The notes: a model not told the origin generated them from the sequence alone. Counted from the stretch's first letter, positions 4,144 to 27,408 are shown. The stretch: 61,470 bases of DNA from Pseudomonadales bacterium (GCA_020632235.1 JACKFY010000003.1:160139-221608), one strand, 5' to 3'. Translations and numbers: made by a program.

Positions 4144-4186
4144 GACCCTTAGTATACGCTATTACCCCAAAAAGTGATTGGTTATC

Positions 4187-9452: not shown

Positions 9453-11136
9453 TACCTCCCAAAAGCACTGCGCTGATTAAGGTAATGCTGTCAGCAGTTT
9501 TTCTCAGCGGTGTTTCTAAAAATACAAGTCGTACGTTGTGAGTGCCTGCTGGTTGCTGCCAAGAAATACGCCCATACTCATCTGTTGTGGTGGCGACTGG
9601 TAGGTCATCAACAAACACCTGCCAGCCAGGATACCACGCCACACTGCCGCTCACCAAGCTAGTAGTTGCTTGGTCTACTGCAAAACGAACGCGGTGAGGC
9701 TGCTCTACGAGATCACGCACTTGACCACACCCACTGCACGAAAACAGACCCGTGCGAGCTCCTTCTGGGGGTAGGTAAAACTCGGCCGGAGCAAAGTCAT
9801 TCATGGTGTTACTCATCTCTACTGCAATGCGAGGAGGATCACTATAGTAGTGCTGCTCTACTACATTTTGCGTGGAAACAGGCCGAAAGTATGTGAGAGA
9901 GGTCAAGCACGCCCACGCAACCCCTACCGTGACAAATATTTTTCTCAGCTGTACAGGCGCCAGGGGAACCCAAGCAGTGGCAAGAAGTCCCATAAAAACA
10001 CTGGCGAGTGAGAGCCAGCGCCAGGGAAACTGTAAGTAAGAAAAAAGAGACAGTGTTTCCCACACTGACGTTGAAAAACGGTGGGTGAGCAAAAGCAAAA
10101 GAGCCGTAACTCCAAACAACATACTCACCAAACGAACCCCCCTACTCGGCCAGGTTTTTTGAAAGATGCTCTTTCTATAATGCGCCACATACCACAACAA
10201 CAACCCCATCGTAAGGATGCTTCCGCCCAACTGAGGCCATCCCAAAAAGAATGAAATGCCATCGAGTGGTCCTTCAAGAGATCCACCGTACTCCCAGTTT
10301 TCTACAAACCACTGTCGCCAACCAACGAAGTGCAAGTGATAATCAAACAAGTTGCCTGTCACTGCGGTAGTGACAATGGTATCTGGTCGCTCTAAAAACG
10401 CTGGAATCGTGTAAAACGCACTGACACCTACTGCAAGGAGACTAATGACTATAATATTTCTGTACATCCTAACCCATGTTGAAAAAAATCGTCTTGATTG
10501 TGGGGTTAAGAGCGCGAGAAGCATAACAGGAGCAAAAACAATCACCATGAGGCTCATTAAGTTATGACTCAGTAGTAACGTAATGAATGACGTAGCAAAA
10601 ATCACATATCCAATACCATCTTTTGTATTATCATAGATGCGCAGCAAACCGTATAACAACCAAGGAATGGTCATCATCCCCCAACTTTCAGCAACTGCCC
10701 CGCGCACAAACAGATTAACCGCCCGGTAGGGAGCCAGGGTAATAAACGCCGCTGTCAGCACCCCACCAGCAGCTCCAAACAGACGTCTGCCCAAGAGGTA
10801 CGAGCCAAGCAGTGTCACCAGACTCGGGATGATAAACAATGCCTTAACCGCAGTTGTCAGTGATGCTCCCAACAGGGTGCATAACGCCCCCACCAGGTAG
10901 GGTAGCGGAGCGTAAAAACTAAACAGCGGCATGCCGTAGCCATAATTGAAGTTTTGACTCCATCGCGCCGGGATATGTCCAGCCAGCACTGCACGCTGCA
11001 TTTCTACGATTCGCGCCCCATGCACAAAGTCATGCGTATAAAACATGCCGTCTTGACTAATAATACTCCAGGTAGTGCACAGGAAAACCAATAGTAGAGA
11101 CAAAAAGATAAAAATAGCCTGCTTTTGGATGACCAT
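9424..11136 (-). CDS. PTPS-related/YfhO-like membrane GT-C protein
   Basis: THDFVHGAR, RWSQNFNYGYGMPLFSFYAPLPY, APYR..RGA..E, C-terminal WYPGWQV..G.H.VRL. Confidence 0.8.
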   Translation of the reverse strand: MVIQKQAIFIFLSLLLVFLCTTWSIISQDGMFYTHDFVHGARIVEMQRAVLAGHIPARWSQNFNYGYGMPLFSFYAPLPYLVGALCTLLGASLTTAVKALFIIPSLVTLLGSYLLGRRLFGAAGGVLTAAFITLAPYRAVNLFVRGAVAESWGMMTIPWLLYGLLRIYDNTKDGIGYVIFATSFITLLLSHNLMSLMVIVFAPVMLLALLTPQSRRFFSTWVRMYRNIIVISLLAVGVSAFYTIPAFLERPDTIVTTAVTGNLFDYHLHFVGWRQWFVENWEYGGSLEGPLDGISFFLGWPQLGGSILTMGLLLWYVAHYRKSIFQKTWPSRGVRLVSMLFGVTALLLLLTHRFSTSVWETLSLFSYLQFPWRWLSLASVFMGLLATAWVPLAPVQLRKIFVTVGVAWACLTSLTYFRPVSTQNVVEQHYYSDPPRIAVEMSNTMNDFAPAEFYLPPEGARTGLFSCSGCGQVRDLVEQPHRVRFAVDQATTSLVSGSVAWYPGWQVFVDDLPVATTTDEYGRISWQQPAGTHNVRLVFLETPLRKTADSITLISAVLLGGIVYKHSKHA

Positions 11137-12390: not shown

Positions 12391-13401
12391 ATGCACACAC
12401 TCTTGGTTACCGGCGGAGCCGGGTTTATTGGCTCCAACTTTATTCGCTACTGGCTAAACAGGCATCCTGAAGACAAGGTCATAAACCTTGATCTACTTAC
12501 CTATGCTGGTAGCACTCAAAATCTGGGGTCGGCAAATGACAACCCTCACTACCAGTTTGTACAGGGTGACATTCGTGATCAAGAACTGGTAGACAAGCTC
12601 GCCGCTGACGCAGATGTGATTGTTCACTTTGCAGCCGAAAGCCACGTTGATCGCTCAGTGCTTGAGCCAGACGTCTTTCTCTCGACCAACGTACTGGGCA
12701 CCCACACACTGCTCAAAGCCGCTCGCGCTCAAAACATCAAACGATTTCATCATATCTCGACAGACGAGGTCTTTGGCTCACTAGAGCTGGGCACCACAGA
12801 GCAATTTAATGAGCGCACCGCCTACGACCCGCGCAGTCCTTACTCTGCCAGCAAAGCAGCCTCCGACCACCTGGTGCGTGCGTATGGCGAAACGTACGGT
12901 CTCCCTTTCACCATCACCAACTGCAGCAACAACTACGGTGAGTATCACTTTCCAGAAAAACTCTTTCCCCTGGCTATTACCAACCTTATTGAAGGAAAGC
13001 CCGTGCCTGTCTATGGCGATGGACTGAATGTGCGTGACTGGCTCTATGTCCAGGACCACTGTAGTGCGATCGAGCGTGTGTTGACCGACGGGAAAACAGG
13101 TAAAACCTACGTGGTGGGCGGCATGAACCAAGATGTTTCTAACCTTGATGTAATCAAGCAGATCCTCTCACTCATGGGCAAGAGTGAAGATATGATTACA
13201 TTTGTCAAAGACCGCGCCGGTCACGACAGGCGCTACAGTGTTGACTGGAGTAAGATAAAGCGCGAACTAGGCTGGCAACCTTCCGTCACCCTTGAAGAAG
13301 GGCTTGAAAAAACTATCCAGTGGTACAAAAATAATGAAAGCTGGTGGCGACCGAGAAAAGAACAAGAAGGTGATTTTTTCAAGAAAAACTATCAAGTATG
13401 A
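12391..13401 (+). CDS. rmlB: dTDP-glucose 4,6-dehydratase
   Basis: LVTGGAGFIGSNF, HFAAESHVDRS, STDEV, SPYSASKA, NCSNNYG; start reassigned to 12391. Confidence 0.97.
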   Translation: MHTLLVTGGAGFIGSNFIRYWLNRHPEDKVINLDLLTYAGSTQNLGSANDNPHYQFVQGDIRDQELVDKLAADADVIVHFAAESHVDRSVLEPDVFLSTNVLGTHTLLKAARAQNIKRFHHISTDEVFGSLELGTTEQFNERTAYDPRSPYSASKAASDHLVRAYGETYGLPFTITNCSNNYGEYHFPEKLFPLAITNLIEGKPVPVYGDGLNVRDWLYVQDHCSAIERVLTDGKTGKTYVVGGMNQDVSNLDVIKQILSLMGKSEDMITFVKDRAGHDRRYSVDWSKIKRELGWQPSVTLEEGLEKTIQWYKNNESWWRPRKEQEGDFFKKNYQV

Positions 13402-14006: not shown

Positions 14007-14880
14007 ACAGCCACTTTTGATTACTGGTGGCAACGGGCTGGTTGGCTCAAAATTTAAACAGCTGTATCAAGATATATATGACTTTGACTCACTTGATATT
14101 TCAGATAAAAAACGACCAGTAGATATTACTGATCTTGAAAGTGTTCGGGCAGCACTAGATGGCTCAGCGGCTACTCACATCATTCACCTGGCTGCCTATA
14201 CCGATGTAACTGGGGCTTGGCAGCAAACTGACGACAAAACTGGCCTCGCGTGGAAAGTCAATGTGGACGGTACAGATAATATTGTGCGGGCGGCACAGGA
14301 AACAGGCAAGCACCTCGTGCACGTCTCGACTGCGTTTGTCTTTGATGGGGAAAAAGAAGGGCTCTACACAGAAACAGACGCACCCAACCCCATCGAGTGG
14401 TACGGCTCTACCAAGGCGCAGTCTGAAAGAATCGTAATGAACGCTAGCGGTGACTGGACCATCTTTCGGATTGACTTTCCCTTTCGCTTTGATACCTTTC
14501 TCAAGCCAGACATTGTGCGAAAACTAGCGGGCGTCATCACTAGCGACAACCCTTATCCACTGTTCGCCAATCATTACTTTGGCCCTACCGTGATTGAAGA
14601 CTTCTCTAAAGTACTTGACTGGGCTGTGCGTACTTCACCCACCGGGCTGTACCATGCATCAAGTGGAGAGAGGTGGAGTGATTATGACCTCGCACACTTG
14701 ATCAACACCACTCATAACCTAGATGGAACGGTTATAAAGGGCGATGTGCATGAGTACCTGAAAACCCTTGATAGACCCTATCAAAAAAACACCGCCATGA
14801 GCACAGAAAAACTACAAAACAAGATAGATTTTGAGTTGATGAGTGTTAAGGAGGCGATAGCAAAATGTGTAATTGAGTAG
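13996..14880 (+). CDS. rmlD: dTDP-4-dehydrorhamnose reductase
   Basis: ITGGNGLVG, HLAAYTDV, STAFVFDG, YGSTK. Confidence 0.9.
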   Translation: MPVKQPLLITGGNGLVGSKFKQLYQDIYDFDSLDISDKKRPVDITDLESVRAALDGSAATHIIHLAAYTDVTGAWQQTDDKTGLAWKVNVDGTDNIVRAAQETGKHLVHVSTAFVFDGEKEGLYTETDAPNPIEWYGSTKAQSERIVMNASGDWTIFRIDFPFRFDTFLKPDIVRKLAGVITSDNPYPLFANHYFGPTVIEDFSKVLDWAVRTSPTGLYHASSGERWSDYDLAHLINTTHNLDGTVIKGDVHEYLKTLDRPYQKNTAMSTEKLQNKIDFELMSVKEAIAKCVIE

Positions 14881-14882
14881 TG

Positions 14883-15533
14883 TCAATCTGAACTACTTTT
14901 GATCCTCCATTCTGCAATCTTCCCATGATTGCCGCTCAGCAATACCTTTGGTACACTCCAGTTATTGTATGTTTCTGGCTTTGTGTACTGCGGGGCAGCT
15001 AAAAATCCAGATGTATCGTGCGACTCTTGGTTGAGGCTTTCTGGATTTCCTAGCACTCCTTCTTGCAGTCGCATCACGCTATCTACTATACTCAGGGCCG
15101 CTGCTTCCCCGCCAGAAAGCACGAAGTCACCTATTCTCACTTCCTGGTCTACCAGATGCTCTGCCACGCGCTCATCCACCCCTTCATAATGTCCACAAAT
15201 GATGGTGAGATACTCCAGCCCCGCATACTCTCGGGCAGTTTTTTGAGTGTAGCGCTCGCCTTTCGCCGAGGTAAGAAGTATGCTTGATTTTTCTTGATTT
15301 TTTGCAACTCCAATGCTGCGCAACGCTTTCTCTATTGGCTCTACCATCATCACCATACCCGCTCCACCGCCATACGGAGTGTCATCCACCCGCTGGTGCG
15401 TACCTATGCCAAACTGCCTGAGATCAACTATTTTGAGCGTGTGTTCTGGTTGCGCAAACGCTCGACCCACAATTGAAAGTGAGAGTGGTTTTTTAAAGTA
15501 CTCTGGAAAGAGAGTGATGATGGTGATGGTCAT
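14883..15533 (-). CDS. trmD: tRNA (guanine37-N1)-methyltransferase
   Basis: ITLFPE, VDDTPYGGGAGM, CGHYEGVDER, IGDFVLSGGE, PQYTKP; start reassigned to ATG 15533. Confidence 0.98.
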   Translation of the reverse strand: MTITIITLFPEYFKKPLSLSIVGRAFAQPEHTLKIVDLRQFGIGTHQRVDDTPYGGGAGMVMMVEPIEKALRSIGVAKNQEKSSILLTSAKGERYTQKTAREYAGLEYLTIICGHYEGVDERVAEHLVDQEVRIGDFVLSGGEAAALSIVDSVMRLQEGVLGNPESLNQESHDTSGFLAAPQYTKPETYNNWSVPKVLLSGNHGKIAEWRIKSSSD

Positions 15534-15583
15534 GGAGAGTAGTATAGCAAAATTTTTGCCGACCACATGTAGGCTTCCCCAAT

Positions 15584-15661
15584 CTACAGTACAGGAAAAA
15601 TCTGAGCTCCTACATTTACCGCAATGGCAACAACCAGACCCGTGAGGATCAGTCCCAACAC
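15584..15661 (-). pseudogene. 3' remnant of a membrane-protein gene truncated by the IS
   Basis: Hydrophobic frame VLGLILTGLVVAIAVNVGAQIFPVL* of backbone-like composition runs right up to the IS left end. Confidence 0.4.
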
Positions 15662-15724
15662 TGACCCGCTCCCCTTATACTTGACACTAATTGTAATTAA
15701 AATAGTTGTCAGAAAGGGGGCAAA

Positions 15725-15937
15725 GTGGCAGGAATTTCTAAAGATATTAAGGCCGAAATCATAGCCAAGGTAAAGGCAGGGCAAAAAGTGGCGGATTTAG
15801 CCAAGGCGTATGGAATTAGCACTAAAACCATCTATAACTGGCTGCGAGGTCAAGTAAAAGAGCAGGTGTCTATGGGGAATACAAACGGTAATGAAGAAAC
15901 CAACAACTTAAGGCAAATACTTGAGTTCTCACACTGA
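15725..15937 (+). CDS. IS3-family OrfA (HTH)
   Basis: KVADLAKAYGISTKTIYNW helix-turn-helix. Confidence 0.8.
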   Translation: MAGISKDIKAEIIAKVKAGQKVADLAKAYGISTKTIYNWLRGQVKEQVSMGNTNGNEETNNLRQILEFSH

Positions 15938-16198
15938 ACCAGAAGTCAAAAAAAAGAACAGAAACTAGTACATTACTTTTGGAAGCACTGCCACATCTGG
16001 ATAAAACTCTCTTGGCGGATGCTCTTGGTATTTTAGGTAGTGGTTGTACAAAACAGATTTTATTCAGGTGAAAAAAGACAAGCAGTTAAAGCAACAAATT
16101 GAGGAGGTGTAGAGCCCTCACCCAGAGCAAAGCCAGTTATATGGCTACCGCAGGTTAGCAATTGAACTAGGAGTTGGTAAGAAGGAATTCGCAGATGT

Positions 16199-16826
16199 AT
16201 GAAGAAATATGGCTTGAGGCCATACAAAAGAAAAGCCAGATGGCGAAAAAGAAGAGATGAACAAAGAAAGCCAGTAGCTTTTGCAAACGAGATTAAAAAC
16301 CAGTGTCCACTAGTACCCAACCACACTTGGGCTGGAGATTTTACATACTTGCCATTTAAGGGCAAGTTTATCTACGTAGCTACTTTCTATGGATATTTTT
16401 ACCAGAGAGATAGTGGCTTGGCAAATATCCGATAGACATGACAAAACATTGGTTAATGCAAGCCTTTTAGATGGCTTAGTTAACCGAGACTTCCAGAAAC
16501 CAATATACATCCACTCTGACCAAGGAGCAGAATATTGTTCCCAAGATTACACTTGATTTAGTGAAGAATTTTGGGGTTAGCAATTTCCATGAGTACCAAG
16601 GCTTCTCCCTGGGAAAATGGTTACCAAGAATCCTTTTACAACAACTTTAAAACTGACTTAGGCCTTGAGTTTGACCGCTTCGACGATGAAGGGCACTTTC
16701 TGGAAGCAATACACCACACCCTTTAGAGCTACAACCATGAAAGAATTCACTCTGCCTTGAAAATGCCACCCTCCAGATTCCATGCCAAGTATTTACAATC
16801 CGTGTCTACGAAAAGGGGCGCTTGAC
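16199..16826 (+). pseudogene. IS3-family OrfB DDE integrase core, split by several frameshifts
   Basis: PNHTWAGDFTYL, IHSDQGAEY, PWENGYQESFYNNFK and RIHSALK occur in different frames. Confidence 0.8.
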
Positions 16827-16906
16827 AATGTGCTATTAAATTTCGTTATTATAACGCATCAATATCAATTCCCGTAAGTTCTTTTATTTTTAATTTTGAT
16901 CCATTA

Positions 16907-17368
16907 TCAATAGCTTGTAAAGCTATACAGAGATTTTATTGTTACTCCATGGTCTCCTTCCGATGGCGATAAATACCTTTCCTCAGACAAGCCTAATACT
17001 ATTCCAGGACCAAGTGTAGTGGTGGTAATTCCCAGTTTTTGAAGCTTTATAATCAATGTTTCTTTTCTTCCAATACTTGCCATTCCGCTATCTGTTAACG
17101 CATAAGGTCTAGCTAGTTGGGGGTCTGTTTCTACATGCATGGTTCGTGCATCTCTATTAAGTAAATAACTACCTTCGGCAATATCCAACAACAATGATCC
17201 CAAATTAACACCTCTAAAATAAAGCGAAGTACTGGGATCATAAGCTTCAAAAACTTGTGAATCATCGACTTTTTTCAGAATTTGAAATGCTGCATCAACA
17301 ATACTAATTCTAGTTTGTCTCTCCGGAATACCACCTTGATCAAAATTAAAAATATTGCCTTTACTCAT
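16907..17368 (-). CDS. Cassette 6: hypothetical protein
   Basis: 153-aa ORF starting about 35 nt after the attC5 core; no family recognised; the true end may be 16849 (..LQAIDNGSKLKIKELTGIDIDAL*) if frameshifted. Confidence 0.65.
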   Translation of the reverse strand: MSKGNIFNFDQGGIPERQTRISIVDAAFQILKKVDDSQVFEAYDPSTSLYFRGVNLGSLLLDIAEGSYLLNRDARTMHVETDPQLARPYALTDSGMASIGRKETLIIKLQKLGITTTTLGPGIVLGLSEERYLSPSEGDHGVTIKSLYSFTSY

Positions 17369-17402
17369 ATTACTTTACATATTGGTAAATTTAATAGCAT
17401 TT

Positions 17403-17537
17403 CATATAACGTTTTGCAGCTACCCGAAGGTGGCGATTTCGAAGCACTTCACTGTCAGCTAAGCACAAACTTTGATAGAGGCACAAAGCTTGATTTAACC
17501 ACTGAACCGCCACTTTTGGGTAGGTGCTGTTATGGGC
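17403..17537 (-). repeat. attC-like site 5
   Basis: R'' GCCCATAAC (17537-17529, contains the CPBP stop TAA), R' GTTATATG (17410-17403); arms CTACCCAAAAGTGGCG / CTACCCGAAGGTGGCG, 14/16. Confidence 0.9.
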
Positions 17538-18346
17538 TGGTGTTCTTCTCGCGTTCATTTGTCGCTAAATTTTTTGGCTTAAAAATAATGATTGTCAAAA
17601 TACCCCAAACTGTTATTAAAAATCCCATATAGTTCACGATATTTTTGTCGGCAAGGTCTGCTGTGAATGCGATGTCTATGGTTGAGTGAAAAAAAACAGC
17701 ACAAATTAAAATACTTGCTCTGGATGAGTTGTAAAGCCAAGTCAATAAAATACTTCCTGTCAATAGGCTAAATGTCCAGCCGAATATGCCTGCAAAATCC
17801 ATTGAAGTGTAACCTGGTCTGTAAAAGAAAAGTGGCCAATGCCAAACAGCCCAGAATATTGTCAAAATGATACTTGAAGTCAAAGCATTAAACTTGTCTT
17901 GAAACCTTGGCAATGCAAAACCCCGCCAACCAACTTCTTCTCCAAGTCCAAAGAAGATTAAGTTATAAATGAAAAATGTCAACAAGTTGAATTGAGGAAA
18001 CTCTTTTGAAGTTAAAAGACCCGAAATATTGATAGGCGAGTTATCAACGAAGTAGTTTATGATTGTCGCAATGAAAACGAGTAAGAATGGACTTAAAAGT
18101 GCGATTGCAAAATAAATTAGCGGTCTAACTTGTAAGCACTTTTTAATCAAACTTTTTACACCTTCGTTATTTTGAAACATCCAAGTTGTAAGAAATTAAA
18201 GCCGATTAACGGACCAAGTCCACCAAGTCCGTGGTAATAAGCAAGGTCGGCAAATTTGTCAACCCCAAAATGTGTCCATATAGCGGAAGCCAAATTGTCC
18301 AACTGATTAAATATGCAAGTCCGAAATATGTTATTAGTTGTTTCAT
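17530..18346 (-). pseudogene. Cassette 5: CPBP/Abi (CAAX-protease-like) intramembrane metalloprotease, two 5' frameshifts
   Basis: EEVGWRG, WAVWHWP, H motifs; N-terminus MKQLITYFGLAYLISWTIW starts at 18346 in another frame; stop lies inside R''. Confidence 0.85.
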
Positions 18347-18377
18347 TTCTTTTTAAACTCTGTCGTCACTTACACTT

Positions 18378-18518
18378 GCCCATAACGGTTGGGCGGTAAG
18401 GTATGAGTAGTGGCGGATTACGGAGCACTTTCCTGTCAAGATACGATGAACTTGATGCGAGGTAGAACGCCTGAATACGCTACAGCCCCCGCCATTACTT
18501 ATACACGATGTTATGGGC
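18378..18518 (-). repeat. attC-like site 4
   Basis: R'' GCCCATAAC (18518-18510), R' GTTATGGGC (18386-18378); arms GTATAAGTAATGGCGG / GTATGAGTAGTGGCGG, 14/16. Confidence 0.9.
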
Positions 18519-18537
18519 TGGGCTTCTTTTTCTGTCG

Positions 18538-19167
18538 TCAATAACTATACTTGTCATTCAGTCCTATTCCGTTAAAAATCTGTTCTTTGTATTTCTCAAT
18601 TCGACCAATTCTTGTTTGTGATTGCTTGGGTTGTGAAAAATGAATGATATAGCCCCTTTGTCGTCCAGCTGTTAATGCGTAAAATGCTTTCTTAAATGCA
18701 GGGTCTTGTTCAAATGCTTCAAGAAGTTCGTTAGGAATTGGTTCAGGGTTTTTCTTAAACTCTACTTTTTTTCCGCTTTCTTCAATTTCTATTGCTTCCA
18801 AAACGTATTCTTTTAAAACATCTTTTACTTTCTCTATGTCTTTAACATTGGTGAATTTTATAATTCTGTCTGACTGCAAATTTCCTTGTTGTTGGAGTAT
18901 TTTATGTTTGTCAGTCAATAATACTCCTTTGAAAAAGCCAATGTTTGCCGATTCCTTCAATGCACCCACAGAAACAATGTTTTTCCCTTTATGCGTATAG
19001 ACTGGTGCTCCCCATTTTATTTCTTCTGTCAAACCTGTTTCTAAAACAATTTGTCTAAGCATTTCCAATTCTTCACGCCAATTATGGACTTTGCATTGTG
19101 GCGTTCCGCCATACTTACAACGCATACAGCCGTCAATAAGATATTTGTCTACTTGTGGGTTCATCAT
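18538..19167 (-). CDS. Cassette 4 gene 2: DUF1801 plus YdeI/OmpD-associated domain protein
   Basis: EEIKWGAPVY, IGFFKGVLL, AFYALTAGRQRGY, TR..RIEK. Confidence 0.85.
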   Translation of the reverse strand: MMNPQVDKYLIDGCMRCKYGGTPQCKVHNWREELEMLRQIVLETGLTEEIKWGAPVYTHKGKNIVSVGALKESANIGFFKGVLLTDKHKILQQQGNLQSDRIIKFTNVKDIEKVKDVLKEYVLEAIEIEESGKKVEFKKNPEPIPNELLEAFEQDPAFKKAFYALTAGRQRGYIIHFSQPKQSQTRIGRIEKYKEQIFNGIGLNDKYSY

Positions 19168-19540
19168 TTTGTTAGAAGGTTTAATCTGTATTCAATCATT
19201 TTGATAATCAGTTCTTCGGGCAAAGGTTTATTTATAGGGAACAGAACAGAACCTTTACCTTTTTTGTAATCTTTTAATTCTTCATCAAATTTCTCAATTG
19301 TAGTGGGGTGAGGATAAAGTCCAACGTGATTTTATAACCTGCCATCATAATTTGTTGTTCTCTTTTTCCATTTTTTATTAGGGCATACGCTGGAATATTA
19401 TAATTCAATAATTCTTCTGCATCTGGAACAACCTTAAAAATACACTGTCTAATTTGAAGTAATGTATTTTTTACCTTTTCAGGTTGCGAATGGAAGTAAT
19501 CTTCTACTGAATTTATTTTTGCACTATTGTCCATAAGCAT
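19164..19540 (-). pseudogene. Cassette 4 gene 1: DUF1801 (YdhG-like) protein, one frameshift
   Basis: VEDYF, LLQIRQCI, YNIPAY; adding one A restores YKNHVGLYPHP..GKGSVLFP..KPLP and a stop overlapping the next ATG. Confidence 0.8.
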
Positions 19541-19581
19541 TTTAAATTATCCGTTTTTTCAACTGTCTGTCGTTTAGCCTT

Positions 19582-19654
19582 GCCCATAACGGTCGCGTGT
19601 ATGTGGCGTAGCCTGCCGATAGGTGGCTATGACATATACACAGTGTTAGGTAGC
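19582..19654 (-). repeat. attC-like site 3 (short, 73 bp)
   Basis: R'' GCTACCTAAC (19654-19645), R' GTTATGGGC (19590-19582); arms GTATATGTCATAGCC / GTATGTGGCGTAGCC, 12/15. Confidence 0.88.
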
Positions 19655-19669
19655 GTTTTTTTTACTTTT

Positions 19670-19963
19670 TTAGGTTAATAATCCGCAAATCAGCCCACCA
19701 ATTAACCCCAATGCCATTATTGGTTTAAATGCCTTCGTTATCAAAGCATCTGGAAAACTCATTACTCCGCCAATTATTAATCCCTTCAACCAACCCTGTA
19801 TTGGCAAGTCAATGTTGAAAATAATAAACCCAATAGAAAACCTATTTACAAATGAAGCAATAATTGCTTTTTGCTTATCTTCAAATTCCATAAAGAACAT
19901 TGGTATTATTGAGGTAATTCCAAAAATTGTCCCAGCAATCAAACCTTTGATAATATTATTCAT
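19670..19963 (-). CDS. Cassette 3 gene 2: small membrane protein of unknown function
   Basis: 97 aa, about 4 Gly-rich TM segments; ends just before R'' of attC3. Confidence 0.75.
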   Translation of the reverse strand: MNNIIKGLIAGTIFGITSIIPMFFMEFEDKQKAIIASFVNRFSIGFIIFNIDLPIQGWLKGLIIGGVMSFPDALITKAFKPIMALGLIGGLICGLLT

Positions 19964-19967
19964 ATTT

Positions 19968-20312
19968 TCAACTTTTTAATTCGTAGGCAGATTTAGCCAA
20001 CTTATCAATTCTTTGTCAACATCATTAAGTTTTTCCAATTTAACTATATGCTTAAATCTGTTAGCAGATATTTTTTCAATTTTTTGTATTCTTTCACTCT
20101 CAATTTCAAAGTTTGTGTGAATTTTCAACAAGAGGTAGTTTTTCCGTGAGTAAACTCCAGCAAATCCCGATTTACTGTCCAAATGAATGCTTGACTTTTT
20201 AGGTAATTGAGTTACTGTTCCAAATTTTTTCGCATTCGGTTATTAGTTTCTCGTAGATTTTGGAAACTATTGGTTCTTTATTTATCAAGTGGTCATTAAC
20301 CGTATATTCCAT
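19968..20312 (-). pseudogene. Cassette 3 gene 1: DUF5655-like protein, two homopolymer frameshifts
   Basis: Reconstructed MEYTVNDHLINKEPIVSKIYEKL..PKKSSIHL..FAGVYSRK..HIVKLEKLNDVDKELISWLKSAY. Confidence 0.7.
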
Positions 20313-20331
20313 TTGTTTGTTTTTTCGTAAT

Positions 20332-20467
20332 GCTACCTAACGTTTTGAATATGGTGCGTTTGGCATTTTGAAACACGTCATTTTCAAACTACTATTATTT
20401 TTTATTAATTGCTATAAACTTCATTTTTTGCACTTTCTGCCAAATGCACTATATTTTTGTTAGCTGC
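20332..20467 (-). repeat. attC-like site 2
   Basis: R'' GCAGCTAAC (20467-20459), R' GTTAGGTAGC (20341-20332); arms ATATAGTGCATTTGGCA / ATATGGTGCGTTTGGCA, 15/17. Confidence 0.9.
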
Positions 20468-20472
20468 AGGTA

Positions 20473-21049
20473 TTACTTTAATTCTCTTCCTAATTTTTCA
20501 ACTTTGTTAACCAACTTTTTCTTTTTGTACATCTGTTGAACTTTTAACAGGTCCAAAAGTTGTTATTTTCACGGGTTTAATGCCAACAAAAACTCCAAAA
20601 TCGACTTTTTCATTGAATTATGTCCAGGCTTTTATAAATCAATGAATAATACCAATTTGGTGTGTCAGTCGTTACAATTAATCTTGCAGTTTTTCAGTTA
20701 ATAGTTTTTGAGAACGGTGATTTCTCTTGGTATTCAAAAGCAAATCCAGGCAGAAACAATCTCATCAAAAATCTTTTAACAACGCAGGATAAGTCCCCCA
20801 CCAATTGGGATAAACGAAAACCAAATGATCAGCTTTTGTTATTAAATCCCATACTTTTTGTAAGTCTGGTTCCAAATCTGTTCGTTTTCTGTACCCATAT
20901 TTTAATACAGGCGAAAATTCTAAATCTGTGAGGTTAATAATTTCACATTCTGTTTCGGACTTATCTACTCCTGTTTTGTATTTTTCTGCCAATGAAGTGC
21001 AAAAACTCTCTTTGTCAGGATGTCCATTAATTATCAATATTCGTTTCAT
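20473..21049 (-). pseudogene. Cassette 2: NAD(P)H:quinone oxidoreductase (flavodoxin_2/MdaB-like), several frameshifts
   Basis: ILIINGHP, ADHLVFVYPNWWGTYPALLK; the downstream LFLPGFAF, KTARLIVTTDTP and GIKPVKIT segments lie in shifted frames. Confidence 0.85.
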
Positions 21050-21078
21050 ACTTACTGTCCTTTATATTGGTTTTACTT

Positions 21079-21223
21079 GCAGCTAACGTTTGCGTGTATG
21101 AGAAGTTTCGCACACAACCTTAATTTTATCAATTAAATGTGCGAAATTTGGGAGAAAGAAAAAGTGCAACCTTTGAAAATTACTAACGCACTTTTTCTTG
21201 AACCTTATACACGCTGTTATATG
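21079..21223 (-). repeat. attC-like site 1
   Basis: R'' CATATAAC (21223-21216), R' GTTAGCTGC (21087-21079); arms GCGTGTATAAG / GCGTGTATGAG. Confidence 0.88.
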
Positions 21224-21243
21224 ACGTATTGCTCAGACCCCTA

Positions 21244-21840
21244 TTAGTAGAGATTAAATTTGTCTAAATGATCTCTAATTCTAAAAAATATTTTTTTGTG
21301 ACCTTCTGAAGTCGGATGTAAGCCATCGTCTAAATCAGTTTCATTAATTACATCAAAGGTTGGAATAAAATGGACGTTTTGTTGGGATGAAATTTTTGCA
21401 ATTGCTTCATCGTATTTTTTTAGCGTTTCGTTCTTGTAGTACTTTTTCTTGTCACGGAGGTAAACAGCGTTGATTTTTTCCTCATCAACTTTTGTTAAAC
21501 CAACTAAAATAATATGAGAAGTGTAGGATCTGGCCATATCAACAAGCTCTTCAAAATTTTTGATTGTATCTTCGAGATTGACTCTATATTTCTTCTCATC
21601 AGTAAAATACTGTGAATCGTTGCCGGCAATTGCAAAAATTATTATTTCGGGTTTACGTGGCTTACATTCGTTATTAAACCTTTGAAGCAGGTCATTAGTA
21701 TCGTCTCCAGAAATACCAAGGTTAAAAATAAAAATGCCTTTTCCAAGAAGATATCTCTTTAGAAGGTCACACCAGCCGCCTTCTTTAAAGTCGTTCATGC
21801 CGCTGGTAATACTGGCTCCAAATACACAGGCTTTCTTCAT
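21244..21840 (-). CDS. Cassette 1: SGNH/GDSL hydrolase
   Basis: Block I FGASIT, block II NLGISG, block III GND, block V DGLHP; intact. Confidence 0.9.
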   Translation of the reverse strand: MKKACVFGASITSGMNDFKEGGWCDLLKRYLLGKGIFIFNLGISGDDTNDLLQRFNNECKPRKPEIIIFAIAGNDSQYFTDEKKYRVNLEDTIKNFEELVDMARSYTSHIILVGLTKVDEEKINAVYLRDKKKYYKNETLKKYDEAIAKISSQQNVHFIPTFDVINETDLDDGLHPTSEGHKKIFFRIRDHLDKFNLY

Positions 21841-21904
21841 AAAAAATATTTTTTAGAATTGTTTGTAAGATAAACTTTCATTTACGGTTGTCTGAGCAAT
21901 ATTT

Positions 21905-21966
21905 CATATAACACTTGTCTATACGAACCTTTTGTAACTAAAAGTTAGTATAGACAAGATATCAAC
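21905..21966 (-). other. attI-like primary recombination site with adjacent hairpin
   Basis: Core GTTATATG (21912-21905) matches R'' of attC1; no inverse core upstream; perfect 11-bp inverted repeat at 21914-21924 / 21948-21958. Confidence 0.7.
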
Positions 21967-21988
21967 AGTATGATAGTGTTTTATTACC

Positions 21989-22831
21989 ATGGTAAAAACG
22001 GATATTACGAACTTTAGGAAGAAGATGAAGATTCAGCGGTACTCCCCTCGTACCGTCAAAATATACTGCTCGCATGTTGCGCAGTTTTTCGCACATAGAC
22101 AACTGCAACCGAATCAAGTCACAAAAATAAATATCGAAGAGTATGTAGCGTTTTGCATTGACCAGAAAAACATCGCGTTTTCAACCCAAAAAGGCATCGT
22201 GGGTGCAATCAAGCTCTTTTACACATTATGCTATAACAGAAACCTGCACATCGACTACATCTACCCCAAACGAAAAGAGTATAAGATGCCCACAGTACTC
22301 TCACAAAATGAAGTAGCCCTACTACTCAACGCGCCCACAAATCTCAAACATAAGACAATCTTAAGCCTTATATACAGCTGCGGACTCAGGCTCTCGGAGG
22401 TTGTCAATCTCAAAATAGCAGATATCGACTCAGCTCGCATGCTGATTCACATACGGGCAAGTAAAAATAACCGCGACAGAGACGTGATGCTCTCGCCCAA
22501 AATTCTCACACTGCTCAGAAGTTACTTTGCAGAGTACAAACCGACGGTTTATTTGTTTGAGGGGCAAAAAAGAGGCAAGTACTCCACTCGCTCTGTGCAA
22601 AAAGTTTTCAAAATAGCACTCGCAAATTCAGGCATCCAAAAGAGCGCGAGCGTGCATACTCTTCGTCATTCTTTTGCAACACATATGATAGAAAACGGCA
22701 TAGATGTACGCGTTGTCCAAGAGCTGCTCGGGCACAAAAATATCCAGACTACCCAACTCTACACGCACATCACTACCCACATGAAATCAAAGATAAAAAG
22801 TCCCTTTGACACGTTGCTTGCCTCAACTTAA
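21989..22831 (+). CDS. Tyrosine recombinase, integron-integrase-like (short form)
   Basis: N-terminal SAM-like region (YSPRTVKIY); catalytic R (YSCGLRLSE), K (SKNNRDR), HTLRH, LLGH, TTQLY; divergent from the cassette array. Confidence 0.92.
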   Translation: MVKTDITNFRKKMKIQRYSPRTVKIYCSHVAQFFAHRQLQPNQVTKINIEEYVAFCIDQKNIAFSTQKGIVGAIKLFYTLCYNRNLHIDYIYPKRKEYKMPTVLSQNEVALLLNAPTNLKHKTILSLIYSCGLRLSEVVNLKIADIDSARMLIHIRASKNNRDRDVMLSPKILTLLRSYFAEYKPTVYLFEGQKRGKYSTRSVQKVFKIALANSGIQKSASVHTLRHSFATHMIENGIDVRVVQELLGHKNIQTTQLYTHITTHMKSKIKSPFDTLLAST

Positions 22832-23229
22832 CCCACTCTCCCACCCGCCCGCACCGCCAACTCATCAGCCTTTAGCAGCTCTTTGAGCTCATCGAGTGTT
22901 TTTACATCCTTTGGCGGCCGGATAAACCTATCAATAGTAAACTGCACCTCTTTGCCATATACCTCACCGTCAAAATCAAGGACGTAAACTTCAAGCACCT
23001 GGGTCGTCTCCCCCAGCACGTAGCGAGGGCCGTAGTAGAGTCCCCCTACATACTCTTGTCCTTCCAAGATTAGTTGAGAAGTATAGACTCCCGGCTTTGT
23101 ACTGCGGGGAATGCTATGAGCATCAAGGTTAAGCGTGGGGTACCCAATGGTTCTACCCAACTTCTGCCCAGCAAACACGTGGCTGCTGTACCACACTACG
23201 TGCTTCTCCTCCTGATCTGCACCCGCCAT
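22828..23229 (-). CDS. Stand-alone riboflavin kinase (RibF C-terminal domain only)
   Basis: GQKLGRTIGYPTLN, GVY, LEVYVLDFDGEVYG, FIRP; no FAD-synthetase domain. Confidence 0.88.
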   Translation of the reverse strand: MAGADQEEKHVVWYSSHVFAGQKLGRTIGYPTLNLDAHSIPRSTKPGVYTSQLILEGQEYVGGLYYGPRYVLGETTQVLEVYVLDFDGEVYGKEVQFTIDRFIRPPKDVKTLDELKELLKADELAVRAGGRVG

Positions 23230-24107
23230 AAACTGAAAAATACTAAGCCTGCACCAAGAAACTGAGTGTTGGTGAGTGTTTTATCAAAATACATATAGTC
23301 TATAGCCACTGCTGAAACTGGCCACAGTAACTCAAACAGCGTTGCTACTCGCGCAGGCGTATGCTTGAGCCCTGTGTAGTAAATAAGCAAGCCCACCATG
23401 CCAGCTGAAAGAGCTATAAGTAAGATGGCCTGCATCTGGACAGCAGTTACACTGAGAAGTTCTGGTGTTTTGCCCAACAGCACAACAAGAATACCTGCCA
23501 TCACGGTAGTCAGTCCAAAGCGCATCACTGTCGAGGTAAGCGCTGAGGTGGTGTTAAGCACCATCTTACTAATTACCGTTGAGGAGCCCCAACACGCGGC
23601 TGCACCCAGTGCCATCAGTGCTGCTAGAAGCGTTGCAGTATTTCCCTGTGTGTTGAGAGTGAGAGTAGGAAATGAAAGCAAGTACGCACCTATCAGAGCC
23701 AGCACCAGCCATACATAAAACTGCTTGTTCACCTGCTCTTTGAGCATAAATCGAGCCAAGACAACGACAAACAGCGGCTGGAGCTGTTGGAGTAACACCA
23801 CTACCGAGTACTGAATGTACTCCACTTTGCCAAGTGCCGCCGTGTAGAGAACTGTGCCCAGAAGCCCAGAGAAAAAAGCAACAACGGTCATTGTCATCCA
23901 GTTTTTTCTTGAAACTGTCTTGATTTCTGAAAGCCAACGAGGAGCTGTAAGGAGCAACAGTGTAAGGCCAAACAGATGCTCTAAAAACACTAATACCAGA
24001 GGTGATAGAGTGTACAACTCACGACGGAGCACATCATCAAAACTCCATACAATGGCCGCACACGCAACAAGAAAAGGGGCAACTGTTTGTATGCGGGTGG
24101 CATTCAT
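23196..24107 (-). CDS. EamA/DMT family transporter (possible riboflavin importer)
   Basis: 10-TM duplicated EamA pattern (LQPLFVVVLARFMLKE; ELLWPVSAV); overlaps the riboflavin kinase start. Confidence 0.85.
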   Translation of the reverse strand: MNATRIQTVAPFLVACAAIVWSFDDVLRRELYTLSPLVLVFLEHLFGLTLLLLTAPRWLSEIKTVSRKNWMTMTVVAFFSGLLGTVLYTAALGKVEYIQYSVVVLLQQLQPLFVVVLARFMLKEQVNKQFYVWLVLALIGAYLLSFPTLTLNTQGNTATLLAALMALGAAACWGSSTVISKMVLNTTSALTSTVMRFGLTTVMAGILVVLLGKTPELLSVTAVQMQAILLIALSAGMVGLLIYYTGLKHTPARVATLFELLWPVSAVAIDYMYFDKTLTNTQFLGAGLVFFSLWRVQIRRRST

Positions 24108-24207
24108 ATGTACCTAGTTTCGTATTGATTAGAAAAAGGCAGAGCGCTACACTAGCCTTCACGAGCAGACACGGTAGTGTAGCATACTTGAAAGAAAGAA
24201 AGCGTAT

Positions 24208-25500
24208 ATGCAGATAGTGATCATTGGTACAGGGTTTGTGGGCGTAGTAAGTGCGGCAGTGTACGCCTCGTTTGGACACACGGTGTACGGGCTTGACATA
24301 GATGAGCACAAAATCACTTCTCTAAAACAATCGAAGGTTCCCTTTTTTGAACCAGGGCTTTCAGAGTTATTGACGCAGCAACAAGAAAATGGCAACCTTC
24401 ATTTTACAACAAGTTATAAAGAGGCTATTACAGATGCTGATGTTGTGATTATTGCTGTCGGCACACCCTCAAGACCCGATGGCAGCGCCAACCTATCGTA
24501 TATCTATGCAGCTGGTGAAAGTATGGCGCCTTACTTGAAAGAAAACGCTGTAGTAGTCATCAAGTCAACGGTGCCACCTGGCACCATGGATGGTGTTACC
24601 CAAACAATCAAAGAGCACACCAGCACGCCACTCCATTTTGCCTCACTGCCAGAATTTTTGAAAGAAGGCAGCGCTGTTGCTGATACCCTCAAGCCAGACC
24701 GAGTGGTGATCGGTAGTAGTAGCGAGCATGCCAAAAAACTCTTGAGCGAACTACATGAGCCACTCGGCGCACCCATCGTCCACACCAGTATCGAGTCTGC
24801 CCAGATGTCAAAGTACGCTGCCAACGCCTACCTTGCCTCACGCATCAACTTTATCAATGAAATAGCCAATTTATGTGAAATAAACGGGGCTCATGTACAA
24901 GAAGTAATCAACGCTATGGGCTACGACAAACGGATCGGCCATCACTACTGGTACCCAGGCCTCGGCTTTGGCGGCTCATGCTTCCCCAAAGATGTAGCAG
25001 AGTTGGCGTCGTACTCAAAAGAGCATAGCTTGGACGCCAACCTTTTTGTATACCTTGATGCAGCTAACACACAGCGCATCCAGATAAAATGGAGAGAGTA
25101 CACACAGCTGCTTGACGGATGGCAAGGAAAAACAGTCGCCGTGCTCGGGCTGGCGTTCAAGCCTAATACCGACGACATGCGCGTTGCCCCCAGCCTAGTG
25201 TTTGTACCACAGCTCCTTGAGGCTGGCGCACTGGTTCGTGCATATGACCCCAAGGCAACCCCTACGGCAAAACAACTATTTGAAGAACATGAGCGACTCA
25301 TCTATGCAGACACCATCACGCAGGCAATCACCGATGCAGACATCATCATTCTCCTAACTGAGTGGGACGAGATCGTGCAGTTTGATTTCTCAAAACACAC
25401 AGAGAAAGAAAAACAACAGTGGATCATTGACACTCGAAATAGACTGAACAAAGCAACGTTAGAACAAGCAGGATACCACTATGTCAGCATTGGATCATAA
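24208..25500 (+). CDS. ugd: UDP-glucose 6-dehydrogenase
   Basis: IGTGFVG, AVGTP, KSTVPPG, PEFLKEG, GFGGSCFPKD, GLAFKPNTDDMR. Confidence 0.95.
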   Translation: MQIVIIGTGFVGVVSAAVYASFGHTVYGLDIDEHKITSLKQSKVPFFEPGLSELLTQQQENGNLHFTTSYKEAITDADVVIIAVGTPSRPDGSANLSYIYAAGESMAPYLKENAVVVIKSTVPPGTMDGVTQTIKEHTSTPLHFASLPEFLKEGSAVADTLKPDRVVIGSSSEHAKKLLSELHEPLGAPIVHTSIESAQMSKYAANAYLASRINFINEIANLCEINGAHVQEVINAMGYDKRIGHHYWYPGLGFGGSCFPKDVAELASYSKEHSLDANLFVYLDAANTQRIQIKWREYTQLLDGWQGKTVAVLGLAFKPNTDDMRVAPSLVFVPQLLEAGALVRAYDPKATPTAKQLFEEHERLIYADTITQAITDADIIILLTEWDEIVQFDFSKHTEKEKQQWIIDTRNRLNKATLEQAGYHYVSIGS

Positions 25501-26437
25501 CGCACCGATCTTACTTACAGGTGGCACGGGATTTGCCGGCTCTCATCTCTATGATCTGCTCGTAGAGCGCGGTTACACCAATCTTCACCTCACCAGCCTC
25601 ACTGGCAGCCATACAGCACGATTCCCTCAGGCTACAGTACACGCGCTTGATCTCACCAACACGGAAGCTACATGCACTCTTTTCAAACAAGTACACCCAA
25701 CAGCCATTGTGCACTTGGCGTCTATTCCCACCACTCACGACCCGAGCCTGCCCAAGCTCTACACCCTGCATCAAAATATCGCTGTGCAAGACTCGGTGCT
25801 TGAAGCAATGCGACTACATACCCCTACTGCTCGACTCTTGGCTATTACCTCGGCAGAGGTCTACGGCCACCACAACCAAGGCAACACACCACTCACAGAA
25901 ACAACCCCATTTACCCCAGCCAATGAGTACGCTGTTTCAAAAGTCTATCAAGATGCGCTGTCGTGTCAGTACGCTACAGAGCACAACCTAGACATTGTCA
26001 GGGTACGCCCCTTTAATCACGTCGGGCCGCGGCAGACTCCCCATTTTGTCGTTGCCTCCTTTGCCAAGCAAATTGTTCAGATTGAGAATGGTGCGCAAGA
26101 GACACTACAAGTAGGAAATCTCGATGCTGTACGCGACTTTACCGATGTGCGCGACGTGGTGCGCGCCTATCTTGTGTTACTAGAAAATGGAGTGTCTGGC
26201 GACGTCTACAACGTAGGGAGTGGTGTGGGCATCTCTATTACTTCTCTTTTGGACATACTGCGCGAACACTCTCGGGCTGAGATCAGTGTTGTACAAGATA
26301 AAGCACGATTGCGCCCCAGTGATAATCCCGTTATGATTGCAGATGTGACGAAACTAACAACACTTGGGTGGCAACCAACACTACCACTCAAAACAACCGT
26401 ACTCGATATACTTGCCTACTGGAGGGAACAACTATGA
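25481..26437 (+). CDS. GDP-4-keto-6-deoxy-D-mannose reductase (Rmd/Tld-like SDR)
   Basis: [48 protein letters not shown]; directly upstream of gmd. Confidence 0.75.
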
Positions 26438-27408
26438 AGAAAGCATTTATCACCGGCATTACTGGTCAAGACGGCTCGTACCTGGCAGAGTTCTTACTTG
26501 AAAAAAAGTACCAGGTATACGGCTTGACACGAAGAACAAGTACTCAAAATTACGAGCGTATCGCTGGTATTGTTGACAACCCCAACTTGACACTTGTCTC
26601 GGGGGACTTGAGTGACCAACACTCGCTGACACACGCGCTCAAAGAGATTCAGCCAGATGAAGTCTACAACCTTGCTGCCCAGTCATTTGTCAAAGCTAGT
26701 TGGGATCAGCCCGTACTAACGGGCGACTTTACTGGACTGGGAGTTACGAGAATGCTTGAGGCTGTCAAACTCGCCGTACCTCACGCCAAGTTTTACCAAG
26801 CCAGCTCCAGCGAGATGTTTGGCAAAGTCCAGGCAGTACCCCAAACTGAGAGCACTCCATTTTACCCTCGATCGCCCTATGGAGTTGCCAAGGTCTACGG
26901 TCACTGGATCACCATCAACTATAGAGAGTCCTACGATATGTTTGCTATTTCTGGTATTTTGTTTAATCACGAGTCTCCTCGCAGAGGGCTTGAGTTTGTA
27001 ACCAGAAAAATTGCCAACGCCGTGGCGCGTATCGTAGTGGGAAAACAAACCCATGTTGAGCTAGGCAACCTTGATGCACAACGTGACTGGGGTTACGCCA
27101 AAGACTATGTCGAGGCTATGTGGCTGATGCTGCAACAAGAAAATCCAGAAGACTACGTCATTGCAACAGGAGAAACCCACTCAGTACGAGAGTTTTTACA
27201 GCTCTCTTGCGCGGCAGCCGGCATATCAGATTGGGAGTCAGTTTACAAACACAACAAGCAGTACGACCGCCCAGCAGAAGTTGATCTATTGATTGGCGAT
27301 CCATCAAAAGCGCACAAAAATCTTGGGTGGAAACCAAGCGTGACGTTTGAAGAGCTGGTTTCACTGATGGTACAAGCCGAGATAGAAAAAGAACAACACA
27401 CTGCATGA
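26434..27408 (+). CDS. gmd: GDP-mannose 4,6-dehydratase
   Basis: [54 protein letters not shown]; start 26434. Confidence 0.97.

Follow-up and report, generated by a model that had tools for sequence, protein, structure and literature searches.

Here we report an integron-like cassette array in a 61,470-nt stretch of a metagenome-assembled genome (MAG) from activated sludge (GCA_020632235.1, JACKFY010000003.1:160139-221608), hereafter the window. Our reading, to which we assign a probability of roughly 0.75, is that the window carries an integron-like platform, made up of a short tyrosine recombinase, a site in the position of attI and an array bounded by attC sites, in the chromosome of a member of the Patescibacteria, or candidate phyla radiation (CPR), and that at least two phylum-level pools supplied its cargo. 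Cassettes 2-5 probably derive from a widespread cassette pool of the Bacteroidota (Fibrobacterota-Chlorobiota-Bacteroidota, or FCB, group), with cassettes 3 and 4 apparently very recent arrivals (0-1 substitutions), and the sole gene relatives that sequence comparison identified for cassettes 1 and 6 are in genomes of CPR bacteria and DPANN archaea. The cassette structure, the identity of cassettes to foreign copies, the linkage of the array to a CPR backbone and the presence of two co-existing haplotypes were observed directly. An initial annotation of the window had proposed a foreign and possibly mixed-phylum origin of the cargo, which would have been sampled from a pool of cassettes that crosses phyla. 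Our results support this proposal, and the best matches are not all from the CPR, cassettes 2-5 being of Bacteroidota type.

The array and its attC sites

Read on the minus strand from the recombinase, the array consists of a core, cassettes 1-6, an insertion sequence (IS) of the IS3 family and trmD. Cassettes 1-5 each terminate in an imperfect palindrome, and in cassette 6 the IS has cut away the attC. The five attC-type palindromes, four of 139-150 nt and one of 76 nt, lie on the plus strand at 21077-21226 (cassette 1; 59.1 bits, E 3e-10), 20331-20469 (cassette 2; 96.5 bits, E 1.3e-18), 19580-19655 (the short, 76-nt site of cassette 3; 52.2 bits, E 1e-8), 18376-18520 (cassette 4; 115.3 bits, E 7.7e-23) and 17400-17539 (cassette 5; 113.5 bits, E 1.9e-22). 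These scores come from a covariance model, R1, built on an alignment of 18 sites (4 from the window and 14 from related arrays) and used in place of earlier hairpin scans anchored on AAC...GTT or TAAC...GTTA, which were insensitive or noisy. The 76-nt site of cassette 3 was left out of the training, yet was detected. Across the 18-site alignment AACG and TGTT are invariant, and compensatory changes occur in 18 of the 23 predicted pairs. With their imperfect palindromes, R''-L''...L'-R' boxes, AAC/GTT cores and conserved structure, the sites belong among integron attC sites.

The plus, or "bottom", strand folds more stably at four of the five attC sites (at cassette 5, -22.3 kcal/mol on the plus strand versus -18.0 on the minus). 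Each cassette begins with bases that can pair with the R'' end of its own attC (for example repeats I1 and I3), which fits the prediction of a circular cassette intermediate. The attC of cassette 1 has the L-box pattern GTGTATGAG ... CTTATACAC, the same as in Bacteroidota-type sites. Scanning the whole 870-kb genome with R1 gave exactly five matches, all within the array. Since R1 was trained largely on sites from Bacteroidota contexts it measures that attC type only, and on this measure 155 of 301 Bacteroidota genomes in an even sample have the type, many of them with at least 10 sites, versus 13 of 300 other Patescibacteria genomes, in which single sites prevail and several lie at the ends of contigs. 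These counts agree with the suggestion in the initial annotation that the sites are Bacteroidota-like.

Cassettes shared with Bacteroidota

Cassette 3 (19648-20344, minus strand) contains a DUF5655 open reading frame (ORF; 68 aa here, 114 aa elsewhere) and the gene of a 97-aa membrane protein (19670-19963), and cassette 4 (18513-19593, minus strand) contains a DUF1801 ORF (88 aa here, 123 aa elsewhere) and a 209-aa DUF1801/OmdA ORF (18538-19167). The exact 97-aa protein is found on 159 contigs and the exact 209-aa protein on 292. At the 20 fetched loci with cassette 3 or 4 the neighbours were different each time, and the DNA identity to these foreign copies, 99.3-99.8%, stops at the cassette ends (19587 and 20343 for cassette 3; 18401, or 18361, and 19591 for cassette 4), so that the same cassette occurs in different arrays with its boundary at the attC core, as is characteristic of mobile cassettes. 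A base-by-base count gives 0 substitutions for cassette 3 over 757 nt relative to loci of Lewinellaceae (L004) and Saprospiraceae (L006), and for cassette 4 a single substitution and a single indel over 1192 nt relative to locus L013. All differences other than substitutions are single-base indels, both of those in cassette 3 being contradicted by short-read contigs, and the truncation of the DUF5655 and DUF1801 ORFs in the window is due to single indels (19992, 20225 and 19333).

Judged by neighbouring proteins, the hosts of the cassette 3 and 4 copies are Flavobacteriales, Lewinellaceae, Saprospiraceae and Bacteroidia MAGs, and at one locus (L010) a neighbouring protein is identical to one named Maribacter aurantiacus / Flavobacteriaceae. 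The names in the 90% cluster of the 97-aa protein are Bacteroidota, Saprospiraceae and Ignavibacteriota. Diverged homologues of the cassette 4+3 DNA (63-84%) are present in 25 of 300 Bacteroidota species genomes and in none of 300 species genomes of other Patescibacteria. Transfer of cassettes 2-5 in the opposite direction, from CPR to Bacteroidota, was considered and rejected on this distribution of diverged chromosomal homologues. Two of the fetched loci have further contents: in L014 (1-7687) cassette 4 lies between crAss-like phage genes (crAss_MUZ, CrAss_Ring) and the gene of a 272-aa recombinase, in a region that adjoins APH, MFS and IS91 genes, and on a wastewater contig (L002, 683-3641) cassette 3 lies downstream of DHFR, hexapeptide-transferase and erythromycin-esterase genes.

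Cassette 2 (20462-21090, minus strand) encodes an NAD(P)H-dependent oxidoreductase (Flavodoxin_2) that is fragmented in the window. A 1627-nt short-read unitig from the same sample (14x) covers cassette 2, cassette 1 and the attI core, with no differences from the window in cassette 1 and with 2 substitutions and at least 12 indels over 20398-20774; corrected by this unitig, cassette 2 encodes an intact 192-aa protein, exactly the one (P0262) taken from the unitig. The next-best match has 90% protein identity, and nine of the ten named matches are Bacteroidota. Cassette 5 (17532-18389, minus strand) encodes a CPBP/Rce1-like intramembrane protease (PF02517, 48.4 bits versus a gathering cut-off of 22.4) as a 216-aa ORF (17530-18180) with a frameshifted N-terminus, and here the best match likewise has 90% protein identity and the named matches are Bacteroidota in 12 of 12. 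Because the relatives of cassette 5 are 270 aa long, the window copy, short of ~54 N-terminal residues through the frameshift, appears to be frameshifted or mis-polished. Its DNA has 83-86% nucleotide identity to three loci (L101-L103), and R1 sites occur elsewhere in the arrays of L101 and L103; at two further loci (L099 and L100) R1 sites directly follow a relative of cassette 2. The apparent frameshifts of the island are probably assembly consensus errors and not pseudogenes. The Bacteroidota affinity suggested for cassettes 2, 4 and 5 in the initial annotation is upheld by these matches and extends to cassette 3.

Cassettes with relatives in CPR and DPANN genomes

Cassette 1 (21219-21912, minus strand) encodes a 198-aa SGNH/GDSL hydrolase (21244-21840; PF13472, 86.7 bits versus a gathering cut-off of 32.9) and is bordered by the terminal inverted repeat I1 (21215-21238 / 21890-21913; 24 nt, 92%). 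Its named matches are CPR or DPANN in 11 of 11 cases, with identities of 70% to Paceibacterota and 56% to Nanoarchaeota and with Woesearchaeota, Kerfeldbacteria, Parcubacteria, Nealsonbacteria and Aenigmatarchaeota among the others, as the initial annotation had supposed for this hydrolase. At E<=1e-25, homologues were found in 5 of 300 Patescibacteria genomes (33-40% identity) and in none of 300 Bacteroidota genomes. Relatives at a Paceibacterota locus (L067) appear to be ordinary chromosomal genes, and the intergenic repeats of that locus were tried as attC sites and rejected as promoter-like. The closest DNA relative (L068, 1640-2365) has 80.6% nucleotide identity over the whole cassette and keeps the terminal inverted repeats (…CATATAAC / TTTATATCAGATATTGCTCAGAC); it is without an attC hairpin body, and the next gene begins at once. 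A 153-aa ORF beside this SGNH homologue was tried as a relative of cassette 6 and found to be unrelated.

Cassette 6 (16828-17410, minus strand; GC 0.336, GC at third codon positions (GC3) 0.227) contains a 153-aa orphan ORF (16907-17368), for which a search of 1.84 billion representatives returned one homologue cluster (52% identity, E 2e-27). The homologue is on a MAG contig of Candidatus Aenigmatarchaeota, inside an array with attC-like sites of its own, and is adjoined by a 263-aa short recombinase with 35% identity to that of the window; PEP synthase and GAPDH genes are borne on the same contig. The array in question (L077; features at 1183-1282, 2100-2275, 2985-3100 and 3736-4527) has a different attC type, CTAAC TTACGGCATTAACAG ... 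CCTGTTAATGCC TGTTA. Cassettes 1 and 6, together with cX, a cassette of the second haplotype described below, start with GTTATATGAAAT, matching the attI core, and cassettes 2-5 start with GTTAGCTGCAAG, GTTAGGTAGCATT or GTTATGGGCAAG. The first 30 nt of cX gave no exact-pattern match in JGI metagenome contigs.

These data also bear on another history, in which a single non-CPR pool supplied the whole set of six cassettes and sparse naming produced the CPR/DPANN label. Such a history would suit the Bacteroidota-type attC of cassette 1, the closest relatives of that cassette (78%; L068 among them) on unnamed short contigs, the rarity and distance of its Patescibacteria homologues and the one homologue of cassette 6. 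It is quite unlikely, however, in view of the uniformly CPR/DPANN names of the cassette 1 matches at identities of up to 70%, the lack of any hit at E<=1e-25 in 300 Bacteroidota genomes, the setting of the cassette 6 homologue on an Aenigmatarchaeota contig with PEP synthase and GAPDH, and the boundary motif that cassettes 1, 6 and cX have in common, unlike cassettes 2-5. We prefer an origin of the cargo in at least two phylum-level pools.

Host genome and linkage of the array to the backbone

The MAG comprises 870,622 bp in 6 contigs with a GC content of 45-47%, and is estimated to be 95% complete with 0% contamination; 40 relatives in its family or order have genomes of 0.7-1.4 Mb. G026, a complete genome from the same order, shares its EF-Tu with Candidatus Beckwithbacteria GW2011_GWB1_47_15 (Patescibacteria/Microgenomates group), and the EF-Tu of the window genome has 75-87% identity to order and family relatives and 75% to G026. 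Its EF-Tu and S12 clusters had no further members. By its placement with named CPR genomes and its small size, the host genome is, on sequence grounds, a member of the Patescibacteria (CPR) of Microgenomates type.

The array stands out from this backbone in composition. GC in 1-kb windows is 0.31-0.40 over 16-22 kb versus 0.42-0.52 elsewhere, each cassette of the array (16.8-21.9 kb) has a GC of 0.31-0.36, and the cargo ORFs have a GC3 of 0.23-0.36 versus 0.487 +/- 0.037 (minimum 0.402) in 29 backbone ORFs, that is, 3 to 7 standard deviations under the backbone mean. The recombinase, with a GC of 0.431 and a GC3 of 0.516, is within the backbone range. The spot counts of the initial annotation are exact (15/60 at 20401-20460, 24/60 at 22321-22380 and 33/60 at 12601-12660), and the sliding-window GC and codon-usage analysis that it called for agrees with them. 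The genome contains at least eight more low-GC islands (29-37% GC), including C3:4500-13500, C3:140000-145000, C1:87500-94000 and C1:40500-45000, in which the covariance-model scan of the genome found no R1 attC sites; low GC by itself is therefore no marker of cassette arrays here.

Short reads connect each end of the array with the backbone. In the two runs that best cover the window the backbone has a depth of 20-26x, and a 4253-nt short-read contig running from the attI core through the recombinase into the backbone has 21-26x. At the distal end, where the IS (15681-16827, plus strand) lies between cassette 6 and trmD (14883-15566), a 636-nt short-read contig links IS, cassette 6 and attC at backbone depth (21x), and a 14.4-kb contig from run X4, a 2025 sample of another study, holds backbone, IS, cassette 6 and attC at 115x. 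Because the IS has five genomic copies at ~97.4% identity and a depth of 100-134x, about five-fold that of the backbone, it is resident in this genome. Within the array, a 45-48-nt unitig at 15-20x crosses from cassette 4 into the attC of cassette 3, and junction unitigs particular to this cassette order have depths of 14-20x. On the right flank the recombinase stop codon overlaps a backbone gene of conserved synteny, the flank containing a riboflavin-kinase-like (RibF-kinase) gene and EamA in an order kept in three relatives.

Two arrangements co-exist in the population. Haplotype A (attI-c1-c2-c3-c4) has a depth of 13.8/14.8x, and haplotype B (attI-cX-c4), represented by a 942-nt contig at 9.6/11.3x, has ~874 nt of cX in place of cassettes 1-3, joins window positions 19561-19590 to 21901-21935 and accounts for ~40% of the population depth. 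Their sum, 23.4/26.1x, equals the depth of the backbone. Fragments of cassette 1, cassette 2, the recombinase junction and the backbone are also found together, free of differences and at 2.5-5x, in two further samples, and depth covaries across the four samples. The short-read linkage, the depth sums and the flank synteny bind the array to this genome and reveal turnover at its attI-proximal end.

The same observations make a chimera very unlikely, a concern that the initial annotation had itself raised, in which repeats would have fused a CPR contig with an array, and perhaps a recombinase, from a Bacteroidota genome. Cassettes 3 (~500x) and 4 (~49x) are indeed far deeper in the sample than the CPR genome (21x), short-read graphs break at each attC, and the island has many consensus errors, including 19 indels in the IS copy (15874-16580) relative to same-sample short-read contigs. 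A chimera would nevertheless have to contend with independent short-read contigs, one of them from another study, that link both array ends to the CPR backbone, with unitigs of this very cassette order at 14-20x, with haplotype depths that add up to the backbone depth, with depth covariation over four samples, with a flanking IS that is a five-copy resident element, and with a recombinase whose stop codon overlaps a gene in synteny conserved among relatives.

The recombinase and the putative attI site

The recombinase (280 aa; 21989-22831, plus strand) is divergent from the array and matches PF00589 and PF13495. Between it and cassette 1, on the minus strand, is a site (21906-21958) that begins with the core GTTATATG (21906-21913), continues with a 22-nt palindrome and involves repeats I1 and I5; the recombinase start lies 30 nt from the palindrome and 76 nt from the core, both of which are upstream of it. 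One sample shows two alternative first cassettes directly adjoining this core, and by its position we regard 21906-21958 as a putative attI. Its palindrome gave no exact-pattern match in JGI metagenome contigs.

The protein scores 219 bits against the XerA model NF040815, whose cut-off is 220, and so falls just outside that family as a borderline case. TIGR02249 and PRK15417 each align as two pieces that leave out the middle, TIGR02249 with residues 6-182 at model positions 2-179 (of 315) and PRK15417 with residues 199-276 at model positions 253-330; ~16 residues stand where the models have ~70 positions. The IntI4 structure (PDB 2A3V) also matches in two stretches, and the best single structure match is XerA (5HXY, E 1e-41). 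The additional domain around patch III that distinguishes the IntI clade is absent, and related recombinases linked to arrays are equally short. A separate, ordinary Xer-type ORF (~317 aa) is present on contig C4, and likewise in nearly all relatives.

Identity of the window recombinase is 47-49% to short Bacteroidota recombinases versus 35-43% to its CPR relatives. Its 40 closest relatives among species genomes (35-49%) are almost all from Bacteroidota, with some from Ignavibacteriota and Balneolales, and R1 sites are present at at least 17 of these 40 named loci, including those of the isolates Maribacter antarcticus DSM 21422, Maribacter sp. ACAM166, Rosettibacter primus and Melioribacter sp. 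In the CPR order, a related short recombinase (35-43%) was found in 5 of 40 genomes, at contig ends in 4 of the 5, and attC-like sites occur in 3 of those genomes. In two order relatives a short recombinase lies directly upstream of trmD (L093 in G025, 4338-5794; L096 in G033, 9339-10546). In the window the array lies between trmD and the recombinase and has the IS on its trmD side, an arrangement consistent with IS-mediated inversion. No remnant of a CPR-type recombinase was found upstream of trmD in the window.

In a quick maximum-likelihood (ML) tree, the four CPR relatives group together (99), with an Aenigmatarchaeota protein as their sister (96). The window recombinase, on a long branch, is placed among the short Bacteroidota recombinases (SH-aLRT 90), and a constraint that moves it into the CPR clade is not rejected (approximately unbiased (AU) test, p 0.14). 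Because the ML tree groups the recombinase with Bacteroidota and not with the CPR clade, the platform may be of FCB origin. The initial annotation had suggested that the recombinase is more resident than its cargo; composition (GC3 0.516) and the trmD-adjacent relatives support this, and the ML placement does not, so that the recombinase may be resident.

A recombinase and array that moved as one piece from a Bacteroidota donor, with no sampling of cassettes by the CPR cell itself, would explain both the top identities and the tree placement of the recombinase; the attC type is a Bacteroidota hallmark, and loci L007 and L013 hold cassettes 3 or 4 beside short Bacteroidota-type recombinases. 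We consider such a transfer unlikely, as it is at odds with a recombinase whose GC3 fits the backbone while that of the cargo does not, with the CPR/DPANN affinities of cassettes 1 and 6, with two haplotypes that differ in their attI-proximal cassettes and together make up the backbone depth, and with same-order relatives that have related recombinases and attC-like sites, two of them beside trmD; nor is a clade of the window recombinase with its CPR relatives rejected. A platform of ancient FCB origin followed by turnover in place is possible, and is compatible with our reading of an integron-like platform that now resides in a Patescibacteria chromosome.

Several points weigh against that reading. 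Besides the ML placement of the recombinase, they include the unnamed contigs that hold the closest relatives of cassette 1, its Bacteroidota-type attC, and the dependence of the cassette 6 affinity on a single homologue. Taxon labels come from the ~10% of matches that bear names, mostly MAGs. The source is itself a MAG, with an island rich in indel errors, and given these consensus errors and the high depth of cassettes 3 and 4, polishing could have imposed a community consensus and inflated the identity to foreign copies. Run X4 carries the left flank (14800-17436), the IS and cassette 6 on one contig, and the recombinase and right flank (21900-27000) are undetectable in it even at 80% likeness, a pattern that points to a strain with a different right-hand arrangement.

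Proposed mechanism and relation to known systems

How DNA enters the cell, whether this recombinase is the catalyst and whether a host cell is involved are matters of inference. Circular or single-stranded cassettes would enter the cell, which encodes ComEC; the cassette attC would fold as a bottom-strand hairpin; and the recombinase would insert the cassette at the attI core, in which case the newest cassettes would adjoin the recombinase. That classical integrons take up cassettes when cells are transformed or conjugate is established (PMC8191803).

The locus is like classical integrons (IntI1, VchIntIA and the sedentary chromosomal forms) in its divergent tyrosine recombinase and adjoining putative insertion site, in its mostly single-gene, co-oriented cassettes, in its imperfect-palindrome attC sites with AAC...GTT cores and a more stable bottom strand, and in the occurrence of the same cassette in many contexts with identity that stops at the attC. 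It differs in a recombinase without the IntI-specific domain (the two-piece matches to TIGR02249, PRK15417 and 2A3V), in the extension of R''/R' complementarity to ~24 nt in several cassettes, in its CPR host and in an attC type that dominates in Bacteroidota genomes. The locus would thus be integron-like in its working, yet outside the family of integron integrases by its predicted protein. With XerA, XerC and XerD the recombinase has in common the fold and the catalytic motifs (RHSFATH, LLGH, Y), and it differs from them in heading a cassette array, the genome having its separate Xer-type ORF.

A published parallel is that of archaeal integrons (Ghaly et al. 2022, PMC9668308), where arrays were described from MAGs of lineages that are ultra-small or uncultured, DPANN among them, attC sites shared by distant phyla at 95-100% identity were interpreted as integron-mediated transfer, and the IntIs, 6 in 75 genomes, have the additional domain. 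In contrast, whole cassettes and not just attC sites are identical here, the partners are Patescibacteria and Bacteroidota, and turnover is seen in population haplotypes. Our literature search found no paper on integrons in the CPR.

Members of the CPR have very small genomes and are believed to rely on other cells, and to our knowledge little has been established about how they acquire genes. The array offers a concrete, sequence-level route of gene flow into such a cell, with zero-substitution cassettes, a defined site and polymorphism within one population, and a possible physical association of the CPR cell with Bacteroidota that carry the same cassettes is now directly checkable. More tentatively, and as a proposal that we rate somewhat below an even chance, the locus could be a working member of an undescribed integron class, defined by a short XerA-like recombinase without the IntI domain and by the ~139-nt attC of about half of Bacteroidota species, which extends into CPR bacteria and DPANN archaea and is now moving letter-identical cassettes between Bacteroidota and an ultra-small CPR bacterium in activated sludge. 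If so, cassette 1, a CPR/DPANN-type gene with a Bacteroidota-type attC, would be a cassette formed outside the Bacteroidota, and it bears on the question of how genes gain attC sites.

Surveys describe integrons as rare in Bacteroidetes (PMC9024848). With this attC type in 155 of 301 Bacteroidota genomes beside recombinases that are without the IntI hallmark, a large integron-like class may have been overlooked. Standard tools would probably class the window locus as a cluster of attC sites lacking an integron-integrase (CALIN; IntegronFinder, PMC9024848), because no IntI-type integrase is present at the locus. Unlike a CALIN, such arrays have a related short recombinase beside them at at least 17 of the 40 named loci, and are therefore probably not orphaned. 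The recombinases beside this attC type come in two forms, both without the IntI domain: a short form (~275 aa), whose array is divergent and lies upstream of it, and a long, N-terminally extended form (~375 aa), whose array is co-oriented and lies downstream.

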